A stretch of DNA of 64,000 nucleotides from Thermoproteota archaeon (GTDB lineage Archaea > Thermoproteota > Thermoprotei > Thermofilales > B9-G17): positions 128,001-192,000 of the forward strand of contig JAPDJW010000001.1 of NCBI GenBank assembly GCA_029258885.1. Reading direction: 5' to 3'. Below the pieces are notes generated by a model, which searched no databases, was not told where the DNA came from, and was given only the letters and a program-made list of their open reading frames with translations. Position 1 is the stretch's first letter; the number at the start of each line of letters is the position of its first letter. Position numbers and translations under genes: made by a program. Below are positions 3,649-56,484 of the stretch, in pieces.

Positions 3649-3740
3649 TGCCCCGGCCGGGATTTGAACCCGGGTCTCTGGCTCGAAAGGCCAGTATACT
3701 TTAGGCCCCCGCAGGGCTGACCTGGCTATACGACCGGGGC
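3649..3740 (-). tRNA. tRNA-Glu(TTC) with 17-nt D-loop BHB intron (3701-3717)
   Basis: GCCCCGG acceptor, CTGGC-CT TTC GA-GCCAG arm, GGTTCAAATCC T-arm; intron H helix AGGT/GCCT with CAG and AAA bulges; spliced length 75 nt. Confidence 0.92.
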
Positions 3741-3865: not shown

Positions 3866-3970
3866 TGCGGCCGCCGGGATTCGAACCCGGGTCGCTGGCT
3901 TGCTCCAGATGACTTCGGGAGGCCAGCGTCCTATTCTGGGAGGAATCTGTCCAGGCTAGACGACGGCCGC
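3866..3970 (-). tRNA. tRNA-Gly(CCC) with two 15-nt BHB introns (D-loop 3934-3948; canonical 37/38 3901-3915)
   Basis: GCGGCCG acceptor; H helices CTGG/CCAG and CTCC/GGAG each with 3-nt bulges; spliced length 75 nt. Confidence 0.92.
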
Positions 3971-12699: not shown

Positions 12700-13128
12700 A
12701 TGTCATTAAAGTTTGTTAGGAGGCTTGCGGCCGAAGTTCTAAAAGTAGGAGAAAGCAGGGTCTGGATAGATCCTGATAGCTTTGATAGAGTAAGTGAGGT
12801 CATTTCAAGGGAGGATGTTAGAAGGTTAATAAAAGATGGTGTAATTAAGGTTAGACCCAAGTCCACGCCATCCAGAGGCAGGTTGAGAATGCGGAGGAAG
12901 AGGAGGAGAGGACCCGGTAGCCGTAAGGGAAGCACTATATCTCAAAAGGAGTTATGGATGGCTAAAGTGAGAGCGCAGAGAAAGTTTCTGAAATTATTGA
13001 GGAGGAAAAGGATCATTGATAGGAAAACTTATAGGAAGTTGTATATGATGGTTAAAGGTAATGCTTTCAGAAGCGTGGCACACTTAAAGCACTATATTAT
13101 TGAGCATAAGTTGGCGAGGAGGATATAG
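12700..13128 (+). CDS. rpl19e: 50S ribosomal protein L19e
   Basis: [40 protein letters not shown]. Confidence 0.96.
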
Positions 13129-13129
13129 G

Positions 13130-13744
13130 ATGGCGAGGAACGGCAGGTATAGGGTTCCCTTTAAGAGGAGGAGGAAGGGATTAACCAACTACTACAAACG
13201 GAAGAAGATGATATTGTCAGGAAAACCACGACTTATAGTCCGCAAATCCAATAAACACGTAATAGTACAAGTAGCCACAGCCAAGATACAGGGAGACGAA
13301 ATAATAACCTCGGCTTCATCTATAGAGCTTGAGAAAAAGTTCGGATGGAAGGGAGCTACTAGGAATACTCCTGTAGCATACCTTGTAGGTCTTCTAGCCG
13401 GACTTAAAGCGTTAAAAAGGGGAGTGAAGGAAGCCATATTAGATATAGGATTACATAGGCCTATAAGAGGAGCAATAGTATTTGCGGCAGCTAAGGGGGC
13501 ATTAGATGCCGGATTAAAAATTCCCATAGGTGAAGAGGTTCTTCCCGAAGAGGAGAGAATAAGAGGAGAACATATAGCTAATTACGCCAAAATCCTGCTA
13601 GAGGAGGATTTAGAGAAGTACAACAAGCAGTTCTCAAGATACCTATCGAGAGGATGGGATCCCACTCTACTTCCCAAGTACTTTGAGGAAGTTAAGAGTA
13701 AGATTTTAGAGTTAAAATCAGAATTAAGCCATCCTTCTAATTAA
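13130..13744 (+). CDS. rpl18: 50S ribosomal protein L18 (uL18)
   Basis: [48 protein letters not shown]. Confidence 0.96.
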
Positions 13745-14200
13745 ATCGTTAATAGCTTTTCCTCTATATCCTAATTCTCCGCCTCTCTTATAGTGGACCT
13801 TAATAGATCCTTTAAATCCTCCAGAGGGAGGGCTTAACCTAAAAACTGGTTTTAGCCCAGGTATTTTCCTGATATCTACCTTAGACGTAATTATTGCCTT
13901 AGCTAGATCTTCTATGCTTTTAAAGCCTAATTTTTTAACGTATTCCTCTGTTAGCTTCTTATTTCCTCTTAATCTTCCCCTACGCTCTAGCAGCAAGGTA
14001 AGCGTTTCTTCGTCTATCTCACCCCATGTAATCCAGTTTTCAGCCTTTTTAAGCATACCCATCATAGAAGGGTTATCGTCCACAAGAACTAAGTGGAACT
14101 TTTTATGTAATCTAAGTAACTCAAGAGTTTTCTTTACATCTGGCGGTACATCTACTTGTCCTCTTATCCTGATGACAGCGAGCTTCATCAGCTTCACCAA
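13724..14200 (-). CDS. rpl30: 50S ribosomal protein L30 (uL30), inverted
   Basis: [35 protein letters not shown]. Confidence 0.96.
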
Positions 14201-14808
14201 TCTGTTGACACCTTAATAGCATACGTATTTCTTAATGCATTAAATACAGCTGAAGCGAAATTCAATGATGTTCTGGTTTCGCCTCTAACTCTAGTCCATA
14301 CATCCTTGATTCCTGCAAGCCTTAGGACAGCTTTCGCTATATCTCCAGCTACTAGACCCACGCCCTTAGGAGCAGGCAATAGTTCAGCTATCACACTTCC
14401 ACTTTTCCCGACAACCTTAAAGGGTAAGCTATGTGGTTCTCCGCAGAAGCATTCCCAGCTACCGCATCCCCTACGTACCGGGATAATGTTTAACTTAGCG
14501 TTAACAATGGCTTTCTCTATAGCCTGACGAACTTGCCTCGCCTTACCTGTCCCAAGCCCTACATATCCGTCTTCATTACCTACAACAACGACGACCCTAA
14601 ACTGGCTTACTTCTCCTGCATCTGTCTGCCTTTGAACGAGATTTACCGACAAGACTTCATGCTTTATGTCAGGTAGTAGGGTATCTATAATCTCTACTTC
14701 TTTTATAGGTAGATTCATGGCGAATATCTCATCTAGACTGGTAATTTTCCCCTCCTTTACAAGCCTTCCTACTTTAGTTCTGGGAACCCACTCTATACTC
14801 TGACTCAT
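14194..14808 (-). CDS. rps5: 30S ribosomal protein S5, inverted
   Basis: [40 protein letters not shown]. Confidence 0.97.
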
Positions 14809-15080
14809 TTAATCACCGCTTTAAACTATTTCGCACGTAGCAGATTATATTTTTTTCCCTCTCGCAGTGTTATTTCATTAATTAGCATATAATTTGTTTA
14901 GCTTTCTTGGATCTGAATTTGGTGTAGATACTTATGAACACGCCTATAATCAGCCAAGATAACAGTATATCATACGTCTTTTCAATCCATTTTAGAGAGC
15001 GTGTATGGCTCTATCCTATAATAGAGAGCCGAAAGTTTTAAAATACACTGAATAATGTATAATCCAGCCCTGGTGATAAA

Positions 15081-15593
15081 ATGCCTCAAGAGAAGACATT
15101 TAAGTTTCTAATAGAAGGAGGAAAGGCCACAGCTGGACCCCCTATATCTTAGGGGAAAGGTCCAGCCTTAGGGCCTCTTGGACTCAACGTAATGGCAGTA
15201 GTTAGGAGAATAAATGAACTCACTAAAGATTTTGCTGGAATGAGAGTACCAGTTACTGTTAAGGTTGATATTGAAAAGAAGACGTTTGAGGTTGAAGTAG
15301 GTGTACCAACGACTGGGGCACTCATAGTTAAGGAGCTGAAGATAGAGAAAGGATCAGGTCTTCCAGGGAGGGAAATAGCAGGGAATCTCTCTATGGAACA
15401 GGTAGTAAAAATAGCGATTATGAAGAGAGATCAGTTGAAGTCGAGGACGTTGAAGGGATGCATTAAGCAGGTTTTAGGGACGTGTTTAAGCATGGGAGTT
15501 AACGTTGAAGGAAAGAGCCCGAAGGTTGTTCAGAAGGAGCTTGATGAAGGAGTATATGATGATTTATTGAGGAAGTATGGTGAGGAGATATGA
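15081..15593 (+). CDS. rpl11: 50S ribosomal protein L11, two exons (15081-15145, 15158-15593)
   Basis: MPQEKTFKFLIEGGKATAGPPI|GPALGPLGLNVMAVV after removing 12 nt; ATG at 15081 follows GGTGAT RBS; first gene of L11-L1-L10. Confidence 0.93.
15146..15157 (+). other. Putative BHB-type mRNA intron in rpl11 (ATCTTAGGGGAA)
   Basis: Outer helix GCTGGACC/GGTCCAGC (8 bp), central 4-bp helix CCCT/GGGG, bulges AT|A and AA|A; contains in-frame TAG at 15150. Confidence 0.88.
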
Positions 15594-16231
15594 GTTATTC
15601 GATAGGTGTGCTAGCTAAGGCTATAGAAGAAGCTAAGGCGAAAGCTAAAAAGAGGAGATTTAAGCAGAGTGTTGAGCTTATAGTTGTTTTAAGGGACGTC
15701 GATGTGAGAAAGCCTGAAAATAGGATAAATATGCCTGTTTTTTTACCGAATCCGCCTTCAAAGGAGGCAAAGGTATGCGTGATAGCATCAGGAGACTTGG
15801 AGCTTAAGGCTAAGAATTCAAGGGCAGATCTTGTAGTATCAAGGGATGAGTTAATTAAGCTAGCTGACAATAAAAAGGCAGCTAAGGATCTTGCTAAGAA
15901 ATACGACTTTTTCCTGGCGCAGGCTGATTTAATGCCAACTATAGGAAGGCTTCTAGGTAGATATTTAGGCCCTAGGGGTAAAATGCCTCAACCTGTAACT
16001 AGCTCAATGAATATAAATGCTCTAGTTGATAGGTTCAAAAGATCTGTCAGAATTAGGATTAAGAATCAGCCTGTAATAAGTTGCAGGATAGGTACGGAGG
16101 ATCAGGATAGTAAAAAATTAGCTGAAAATGCCATGGCTATATTAAATGCCATAGAGAGTAAGTTTAAGAAGCAAAACATAGATAGGATTTACGTTAAGTT
16201 GACCATGGGACCAGCCGTTAAGGTCAGGTAG
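15590..16231 (+). CDS. rpl1: 50S ribosomal protein L1
   Basis: RRFKQSVELIV, LGRYLGPRGKMP, YVKLTMGPAVKV. Confidence 0.97.
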   Translation: MSYSIGVLAKAIEEAKAKAKKRRFKQSVELIVVLRDVDVRKPENRINMPVFLPNPPSKEAKVCVIASGDLELKAKNSRADLVVSRDELIKLADNKKAAKDLAKKYDFFLAQADLMPTIGRLLGRYLGPRGKMPQPVTSSMNINALVDRFKRSVRIRIKNQPVISCRIGTEDQDSKKLAENAMAILNAIESKFKKQNIDRIYVKLTMGPAVKVR

Positions 16232-16245
16232 TGGAGGTGTATATA

Positions 16246-17115
16246 ATGGTGTATGTAAGGCAGAAGGCTATTCCTTCATGGAAGAAGGAGTGGGTAGCCG
16301 AATTTACAGAGTTAGTTAAGAAGTATAGGACTATAATGATAGTTGGAATAGAGGGAGTAAGTGCACCAGTATTGCATGAAATAAGGTCATTAATTAAGAG
16401 TAGGAATGGGGTACTTAAAGTAATAAAGAATACGTTATTTAGTAGAGTTATTGATAATGTAAAGGATAAATGTAAAAATATAGAGAAACTAAAGGAACAC
16501 CTGCGTGGATCCAATGCGTTAATTCTAACTAATGACAATCCATTTTCCTTAAAGCTTTTCCTGGATAAAAACAAGGTTCCAAGGGAGGCTAGAGCCGGAG
16601 ATATAGCACCAAAGAACATTGTAGTTTACTCCGGAAACACGAATATGGCCCCAGGACCGATACTCAGCCTTTTCAATAAACTTAACGTACCAACTTCGAT
16701 AAAAGAAGGCAGCATTTGGGTCACAAAAGACACGGTCGTAGTTAAAAAGGGAGAAGTTATATCTCAGGATGTAGCCGAGCTTCTAAGGAGGCTCGATATT
16801 AAACCTATAGAGGTAGGCTTAAACGTAAAAGTGGCCTATGTAGATGGAATAATTATTAATGCAGAAGATCTAGAGCTAGATCTTGAGGACTACAGGAGTA
16901 GAATAGCGGAGTCTGTCCGCAACGCTATAAACCTAGCAGTAAATGCAGCCTTTCCAACAAGTGAAAGTATCAAGGTGATAATAGGAAAGTGTTATAATGA
17001 AGCTATCAATTTATCAGTAAACGCCGTAATTCCATTGCCAGAAACACTAAGTATGATTATCACGAAAGCACAGGTCATAGCGAAGACCATAGCTGATAGG
17101 GCTGGACTAAAATAA
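16246..17115 (+). CDS. rpl10: 50S ribosomal protein L10 (P0)
   Basis: IPSWKKEWV, KVIKNTL, ARAGDIAP, TNMAPGPIL. Confidence 0.96.
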   Translation: MVYVRQKAIPSWKKEWVAEFTELVKKYRTIMIVGIEGVSAPVLHEIRSLIKSRNGVLKVIKNTLFSRVIDNVKDKCKNIEKLKEHLRGSNALILTNDNPFSLKLFLDKNKVPREARAGDIAPKNIVVYSGNTNMAPGPILSLFNKLNVPTSIKEGSIWVTKDTVVVKKGEVISQDVAELLRRLDIKPIEVGLNVKVAYVDGIIINAEDLELDLEDYRSRIAESVRNAINLAVNAAFPTSESIKVIIGKCYNEAINLSVNAVIPLPETLSMIITKAQVIAKTIADRAGLK

Positions 17116-56394: not shown

Positions 56395-56484
56395 TAGCCC
56401 GGCGGGGATTCGAACCCCGGTCGGCGGGTTTCTCTCCTAACTGGGTCCAGAGCCCACCATGCTTGACCGCTACACCACCGGGCT
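56395..56484 (-). tRNA. tRNA-Gln(CTG) with 17-nt canonical BHB intron (56430-56446)
   Basis: AGCCCGG acceptor, GTGGG CT CTG G|intron|A CCCGC; H helix CTCT/AGAG; spliced length 73 nt. Confidence 0.93.

Follow-up and report, generated by a model that had tools for sequence, protein, structure and literature searches.

The 12 nucleotides at positions 15146-15157 of the analysed stretch of DNA (64,000 nt, contig C3:128001-192000 of the genome; hereafter the window) very probably form a genuine tRNA-type (bulge-helix-bulge, BHB) intron in the sole rpl11 gene of an uncultured hot-sediment archaeon of the order Thermofilales, an intron that would be removed from the pre-mRNA by the tRNA-splicing pathway. 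We base this reading on the presence of inserts at the same site in relatives, on insert lengths that break the frame, on helices in which changes are compensated, on the perfect L11 products obtained after excision, and on the endonuclease and ligase encoded in the genome. Such a pre-mRNA intron had been proposed in an earlier sequence-only reading of the window, and the comparative evidence for it is strong: structure, conservation, covariation, exact restoration of L11 and presence of the enzymes are all directly seen. The kind of element is already known (from cbf5), and what is new, relative to the literature searched, is rpl11 as its host gene.

An interrupted rpl11 gene

Translated from its ATG at 15081, the rpl11 frame reads MPQEKTFKFLIEGGKATAGPPIS before it is broken by a TAG (15150-15152), after which it resumes with GKGPALGPLG and continues in the same frame, as GKGPALGPLGLNVMAVV..., to position 15593. 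The TAG belongs to 12 extra nucleotides (15146-15157, AUCUUAGGGGAA), whose deletion leaves CCC CCT ATA GGT CCA (PPIGP), gives an L11 of 166 aa and restores the conserved motif GGKATAGPPIGPALGP, which is universal in L11. The sequence-only reading had described these nucleotides as splitting GPPIGPALGP; the excision agrees with that description, and each of the rpl11 coordinates it had given proved exact on re-reading. In this genome (2.10 Mb, 26 contigs, 99.89% complete) rpl11 is a single-copy gene, and the intact second copy that the sequence-only reading had named as a possible objection was not found. The features of the locus are as follows:

15035-15046, plus strand: TATA-like AT-rich box GTTTTAAAATAC, a putative promoter by sequence reading, about 35 nt 5' of the start codon
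15072-15076, plus strand: Shine-Dalgarno-like GGTGA, 4 nt 5' of the exon 1 ATG
15081-15145, plus strand: rpl11 exon 1, MPQEKTFKFLIEGGKATAGPP and the two first letters of an Ile codon
15146-15157, plus strand: predicted intron of the BHB or bulge-helix-loop (BHL) type, 12 nt, AUCUUAGGGGAA, with an in-frame UAG at 15150-15152; homologous inserts in relatives
15158-15593, plus strand: rpl11 exon 2, the final letter of the Ile codon, then GPALGPLGLNVMAVV... to the stop
15590-17115, plus strand: rpl1 (15590-16231) and rpl10/P0 (16231-17115), 3' of rpl11 and overlapping; one operon by layout

The gene stands at the head of an rpl11-rpl1-rpl10 cluster. An RNA-library contig (the sole one found, from one metatranscriptome) covers positions 15506-15700, a stretch 3' of the predicted splice junction, and is weak evidence for transcription. 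On the other side of the gene, rps5-rpl30 (14808-13724, minus strand) is inverted with respect to rpl18 (13100-13744, plus strand) within window positions 13100-14808, and as a consequence rpl11 is transcribed divergently from rps5 instead of following spt5.

Predicted fold of the intron

The elements of the predicted structure, together with a tRNA intron that served as an internal control of the cutting geometry, are listed below (arrows mark cuts):

15132-15139, plus strand: outer exon-exon helix h, 5' strand GCUGGACC, codons Ala-Gly-Pro; 8/8 pairs with 15159-15166
15159-15166, plus strand: outer helix h, 3' strand GGUCCAGC, codons Gly-Pro-Ala; wobble positions co-vary
15140-15143, plus strand: central 4-bp helix H, 5' strand CCCU, in the exon; pairs with GGGG at 15152-15155
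15152-15155, plus strand: central helix H, 3' strand GGGG, in the intron
15144-15151, plus strand: 8-nt loop with the predicted 5' splice site AU↓A (after 15145); bulge-helix-loop form
15156-15158, plus strand: 3' bulge AAA, 3 nt, with the predicted 3' splice site AA↓A (after 15157)
56395-56484, minus strand: tRNA-Gln(CUG) with a 17-nt intron (56430-56446) at position 37/38; internal control of cutting geometry

In the DNA, the corresponding letters are GCTGGACC (15132-15139), CCCT (15140-15143), ATA (15144-15146), T15147, CTT and A15151 on the 5' side, followed by GGGG (15152-15155), AAA (15156-15158) and GGTCCAGC (15159-15166). The copy in the window has no real inner helix (at most the pair U15147-A15151), and its 5' site lies in the 8-nt loop. 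A 47-nt stretch folds at -21.7 kcal/mol, as compared to -13.8 +/- 2.8 for shuffled versions (z = -2.8), with 1 of 200 shuffles being as stable. The minimum-energy fold of the window copy has the central helix one register off (5 bp and a 4-nt bulge); for the 35-nt core, the BHB register (-19.3) is 1.4 kcal/mol costlier than this fold (-20.7). In 11 of the 13 homologues, both helices (8 bp and 4 bp) and the 3-nt 3' bulge are retained in the minimum-energy fold, and for 7 of those 11 this fold is exactly the BHB structure as drawn. Four copies with inserts of 18-22 nt (L003, L004, L012 and L013) have as their minimum-energy fold the textbook hBHBh' arrangement (two 3-nt bulges, inner hairpin of 3-6 bp); the short variants, that of the window included, keep h, H and the 3' bulge and hold the 5' site in a loop. 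This relaxed form corresponds to the bulge-helix-loop, which certain archaeal splicing endonucleases are described as accepting; the same account links relaxed recognition to the Crenarchaea-specific loop (PMC12397907).

Inserts at the same site in relatives

We searched all 41 Thermofilales species genomes, in 32 of which the rpl11 site was assessable. Thirteen of these species carry an insert at exactly the same site (in all cases after CCN-AU and before A-GGN-CCN-GC), and the other 19 encode an uninterrupted PPIGPALGP. A scan of metagenome contigs with a degenerate pattern returned rpl11 with an insert at the site in 21 of 22 matches (the pattern demanded AAG-GCN and the exact site, differently placed introns being outside its reach). 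The inserts comprise 22 distinct variants with lengths of 11-24 nt. In 15 of the 22 the length is no multiple of three, so that these break the frame and cannot be translated through; the 7 distinct in-frame variants (12, 15, 15, 18, 18, 21 and 24 nt) all hold an in-frame stop. Two apparent interruptions were discarded: the rpl11 break in G113 is a scaffold gap of Ns, and the 'TAG' break in G331 is a normal stop codon.

The pairing potential is maintained throughout the variants. Helix h (8 bp) is perfect in 21 of them (the remaining one has a single A.C mismatch), and helix H, formed by N-CCN of two Pro codons with four intron bases, is complete (4/4) in all 22. The 3' bulge measures 3 nt in 22/22 variants and ends in A, whereby AUA (Ile) is restored on splicing, and the 5' side reads AU-N. 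At the four variable pair positions (the two codon-wobble pairs of h and the two ends of H, i.e. positions 1 and 4) the combinations UA, AU, GC, CG, UG and GU were all seen, and 87 of the 88 cells hold a standard pair; the count overstates independence, as the genomes are related. Furthermore, the wobble pairs of h match in 26/26 cases in the 13 intron-bearing species versus 14/38 in the 19 intronless ones, the latter being the level of chance (0.375 expected; Fisher p = 4e-8 for the contrast, uncorrected for relatedness). Presence and absence among related rpl11 genes (13 versus 19 of 32) and covariation of the helices, the comparisons to which the sequence-only reading had pointed, both speak for the intron. 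Three intronless genes (L005, L006 and L011) have wobble positions that pair in full; as about 2.7 of 19 would be expected by chance, we make no claim of a 'scar' of intron loss.

Predicted cut sites and spliced product

A cut after the second bulge nucleotide gives AUA (Ile) in every variant. The copy in L008 is informative in this respect, since its 5' bulge is AUG: a cut after nucleotide 2 yields the conserved Ile and a cut after nucleotide 3 yields Met, which tells the second-nucleotide rule from a cut one base later. Once the insert is removed from the sequence, L11 is full-length (166-172 aa) and contains PPIGPALGP in 12 of 12 complete genes, the thirteenth ending at a contig edge. The control points in the same direction: in the tRNA-Gln(CUG) intron, H is CUCU/AGAG, the bulges are GG↓A and AA↓A, and cutting there leaves the anticodon loop CUCUGGA. 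The earlier statement that all four tRNA introns of the window obey this rule thus stands for tRNA-Gln(CUG), the one of the four that was examined. Two further tRNA matches on the minus strand were missed by ARAGORN, namely 3866-3970 (105 nt, 44 bits), which at this length must hold about 30 nt of intron sequence, possibly in two introns, and the weaker 3649-3715 (67 nt, 30 bits).

Splicing enzymes and further mRNA introns

The genome encodes two EndA paralogues. The alpha subunit (C3:96503-97051, 182 aa) aligns gap-free and end-to-end with chain B of PDB 3P1Z (E = 4.5e-51), which we take to be the alpha subunit of Aeropyrum pernix EndA; it keeps GIDHAPF, where the near-identical chain of PDB 3AJV (presumably the catalytic-His mutant of the same protein) has Ala for that His. 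For the beta-like subunit (C2:472923-473453, 176 aa), the match is to the non-catalytic half of enzymes with two repeats; models of the beta subunit match it weakly. The predicted endonuclease is of the crenarchaeal (alpha-beta)2 type, which published accounts link to non-canonical introns and to splicing of cbf5 mRNA (PMC10485636; PMC5829648). An intact RtcB ligase gene is also present (C1:488272-489579).

With these components, we infer that cleavage and ligation in the cell proceed along the following lines. In the pre-mRNA, the Ala-Gly-Pro codons (15132-15139) would pair with the Gly-Pro-Ala codons (15159-15166) in an 8-bp helix and the next four exon bases, CCCU, with the GGGG of the intron; this pairing would leave the AAA bulge on the 3' side and the 5' splice site in the 8-nt loop, i.e. 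a relaxed bulge-helix-loop. The heterotetrameric (alpha-beta)2 endonuclease would cut after 15145 and after 15157, and RtcB would join the exons, restoring the AUA (Ile) codon and with it GGKATAGPPIGPALGP. The spliced protein would be recognizable by the tryptic peptide ATAGPPIGPALGPLGLNVMAVVR, and unspliced mRNA would yield a peptide of 23 aa only.

The supposition that more such introns lie hidden in this genome was borne out, as two further genes (both outside the window) carry BHB introns. In cbf5, a 27-nt intron (C2:423088-423114, minus strand) sits at the catalytic Asp codon, the published site of the cbf5 mRNA intron (PMC2738675). The TBP gene has a 29-nt intron (C2:334440-334468, minus strand) whose inner hairpin measures 9 bp and whose outer helix is all but absent; it splices to EYNPEQFPGLV (spliced sequence EYNPEQFPGLVLR). 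The two cases indicate that mRNA splicing by the tRNA pathway would be no one-off in this organism. A genome-wide scan combining motif search and ORF joining returned 1793 and 805 candidates under loose filters, the bulk of them fortuitous fusions at the boundaries between genes; when an outer helix of 6 bp or more was demanded, 13 candidates were left, with rpl11 ranking best and the true cbf5 and TBP introns missed, from which we conclude that an intron catalogue needs homology and not motifs.

No LAGLIDADG endonuclease gene was found adjoining the intron-bearing rpl11, the ORFs 5' of it being devoid of a LAGLIDADG domain. Matches to LAGLIDADG_3 lie far from rpl11, on contig C1, within open frames of 1127 and 1144 aa that we take to be inteins. 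Several Thermofilales, some of them intron-bearing and some not, have a conserved ORF of about 220 aa directly 5' of rpl11 (L009:614-1294, L023:641-1318, L002:2076-2705(-), L020:2080-2742(-)); it has no family match and a faint similarity to DUF460 (E = 0.004).

Distribution, history and role of the intron

In a tree of L11 exon 2, L1 and L10 (quick IQ-TREE run, rooted on four outgroup loci from MAGs labelled Methanomethylicota, Culexmicrobium and Bathyarchaeia), the intron-bearing lineages are scattered across the Thermofilales, so that no fewer than 7 gains or losses must be assumed; well-supported branches impose five of these. Intron sequences are alike within sub-clades. Outside the order, an intron at the rpl11 site was found in 0 of 73 non-Thermofilales matches of the class, in 0 of 141 genomes of the Sulfolobales/Desulfurococcales class, in 0 of about 60 loci from Bathyarchaeia, Methanomethylicia, Nitrososphaeria and other groups, and in none of the 150 matches listed for a 401-genome sample of the phylum. 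The cultured species of Thermofilum (genus g5, which we read as Thermofilum) are without the rpl11 intron, and the 2009 survey of cbf5 scored Thermofilum as intron-free for that gene (PMC2738675). Within Thermofilales the intron is probably of early origin, with repeated losses; ancestral presence followed by repeated precise loss is the simplest reading of a tree that cannot separate gain from loss.

The exon side of the structure has an explanation in the protein itself. As GCN-GGN-CC is the reverse complement of GG-NCC-NGC, codons for A-G-P...G-P-A pre-form 6 of the 8 pairs of the outer helix, which is in consequence largely a by-product of the protein motif. This invites a bolder interpretation, which we offer tentatively and regard as possible rather than probable: the site may act as a landing pad, at which an insertion of about 11 nt bringing NGGN and a bulge would become a spliceable intron, with mini-introns having arisen independently, stops being kept as a fail-safe, and mRNA splicing by the tRNA machinery being routine in some archaea (here for rpl11, cbf5 and TBP at least).

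As to its role, the most likely view is that the intron is tolerated and close to selectively neutral, and is no regulator. The sequence-only reading had envisaged that splicing acts as a switch which tunes L11 and ribosome assembly to the tRNA-splicing capacity, the in-frame stop silencing unspliced mRNA. The stops in 7/7 in-frame variants would fit selection against translating unspliced mRNA, and the position of rpl11 at the head of the rpl11-rpl1-rpl10 cluster would suit such a control; against it, the intron is missing from 19 of the 32 assessable species, some of them sisters of species that have it, and is therefore dispensable, and a needed regulator would not vanish as often as the at least 7 changes on the tree imply. 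The stops would keep the cell from making an L11 with extra residues in its most conserved loop, but they may also simply reflect base composition, through A/U-rich loops and UAA/UGA bulges. We therefore find no support for a coupling of ribosome biogenesis to tRNA processing and deem a regulatory switch improbable.

Conservation of exon 1

The start codon of exon 1 is present in 13/13 intron-bearing genomes, and GGTGA or GAGGTG (both Shine-Dalgarno-like) precedes it in most of these 13 relatives. Over the last 14 codons of the exon, the amino acid is unchanged in 178 of 182 cells, with two to five synonymous codons per column and freely varying third positions, a pattern of purifying selection at the protein level. 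With exon 1 conserved in this way, the internal ATG at 15192 is ruled out as the only start of L11.

We accordingly assign a very low probability, lower than that of the switch, to the view that the insert is kept and that L11 either starts at 15192 (lacking the first 37 residues) or is obtained by read-through or by ribosomal bypassing of the 12 nt (the case of phage T4 gene 60). The ATG at 15192 is in frame, and seven genomes of another family encode an L11 devoid of the N-terminal domain, from which it follows that a truncated L11 is survivable. However, a start codon and near-invariant amino acids in exon 1 of all 13 intron-bearing genomes would be pointless if the exons were not joined, the frame is shifted in 15/22 variants, matching take-off and landing codons are absent from the flanks of the 22 variants, and the covariation of both helices would be left without explanation. 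The alternatives of an ATG 15192 start and of read-through, which had been named alongside the intron in the sequence-only reading, are thus disfavoured relative to splicing.

The genes without the N-terminal domain deserve a description of their own. Seven genomes, all from one family of the Sulfolobales/Desulfurococcales class (L128 (G240:C1:1379900-1381000), L129 (G441), L130 (G519), G506, G491, G494 and G532), have an rpl11 match that covers the C-terminal domain only (residues 73-165; frames of 103-159 aa). Two of the seven genomes are complete (1,669,696 and 1,595,994 bp), with an ORF of about 110 aa directly 3' of spt5. A query with L11 residues 1-72 detected no N-terminal domain at E <= 1 in the four of these genomes to which it was applied.

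The insert in independent assemblies

Contigs from two other studies (X2 and X5) span the rpl11 insert with 0 indels, and the studies with independent contigs carrying the 12 nt comprise hydrothermal vent, marine and other sediment metagenomes. Over 1.5 kb, X2 differs from the window by T15149C alone, a change in the intron loop that fits an unconstrained base; the T>C change at 15149 is present in two independent metagenome assemblies. Two other explanations, namely an error of assembly or sequencing and a pseudogene in decay, have the broken frame itself as their sole argument, and their probability is next to negligible in view of the identical insert in contigs of independent studies, of inserts at the site in 13 species genomes and 21 metagenome contigs, and of a single-copy gene whose flanking exons are under purifying selection.

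Relation to known systems and significance

The closest relative of the rpl11 intron is the pre-mRNA intron of cbf5, described for Desulfurococcales and Sulfolobales (Watanabe 2002; Yoshinari 2006; Yokobori 2009, PMC2738675). Both are short BHB-type introns in a coding sequence, within a codon of a highly conserved motif; both occur in hosts with (alpha-beta)2 enzymes, are patchily spread with inferred gains and losses, and have in-frame as well as frame-breaking lengths. The rpl11 intron differs in its gene and order (Thermofilales), in its length (11-24 nt versus the 19-39 nt given for cbf5 in PMC2738675), and in that its variants mostly lack an inner helix (BHL) and have an outer helix made of exon codons alone. 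Furthermore, splicing of cbf5 was shown by experiment, whereas that of rpl11 is deduced from sequence. With the relaxed BHB/BHL introns of tRNAs, described for hosts of (alpha-beta)2 or epsilon2 EndA (PMC12397907, PMC5829648, PMC3241643), it shares the 4-bp helix, the 3-nt 3' bulge and the predicted cut after the second nucleotide, with both bulges fully formed in the longer variants L003, L004, L012 and L013. The enzymes are presumed to be alike, and the tRNA-Gln intron of the window matches in geometry; the rpl11 host, by contrast, is an mRNA whose product must keep the frame and in which no tRNA body aids recognition.

Among archaeal mRNAs, HVO_1309 of Haloferax volcanii is cleaved at a BHB by EndA (reviewed in PMC10485636). 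It is the second published archaeal mRNA substrate of the splicing endonuclease, and resembles the rpl11 pre-mRNA in this respect. Its intron reportedly lies in the 5' untranslated region, whereas that of rpl11 interrupts the coding sequence of an essential ribosomal protein. A more distant parallel is offered by HAC1/XBP1 of eukaryotes, small mRNA introns that are removed independently of the spliceosome by an endonuclease (IRE1) and joined by tRNA ligase or RtcB, with an altered translation product. In that system the enzyme is IRE1 and not EndA/TSEN, and recognition is of a stem-loop and not of a BHB; HAC1/XBP1 is, moreover, a proven stress switch, while nothing points to a function of the rpl11 intron beyond its removal. 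Rudiviruses have 12-bp indels (Peng 2004, cited in PMC2738675 and PMC4390879) that were weighed as a possible relative; being polymorphisms at the DNA level with no shown BHB, they were set aside.

Neither the rpl11 intron nor any Thermofilales mRNA intron was reported in the literature searched, in which cbf5 and one Haloferax mRNA are the only archaeal mRNAs with documented endonuclease splicing, with a single coding sequence between them; a 2023 review states that further cases 'remain to be discovered' (PMC10485636). The present analysis adds a well-supported candidate mRNA intron in a core ribosomal protein gene, with the shortest lengths that we found reported for an mRNA intron of the BHB type. 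Taken together, its 22 natural variants resemble a set of mutants that delimits the smallest substrate, namely an intron of 11 nt with a single bulge, a single 4-bp helix and, as outer helix, exon codons alone. On the practical side, such genes end up wrongly annotated by gene callers, either as truncated or as pseudogenes.

For the Thermofilales, the range of the cbf5 intron now extends to this order, and in one and the same genome tRNA-type splicing would reach several essential information-processing genes (rpl11, cbf5 and TBP). With regard to intron evolution, the rpl11 site provides a concrete case of a tiny intron at a fixed position that was repeatedly lost, or gained.
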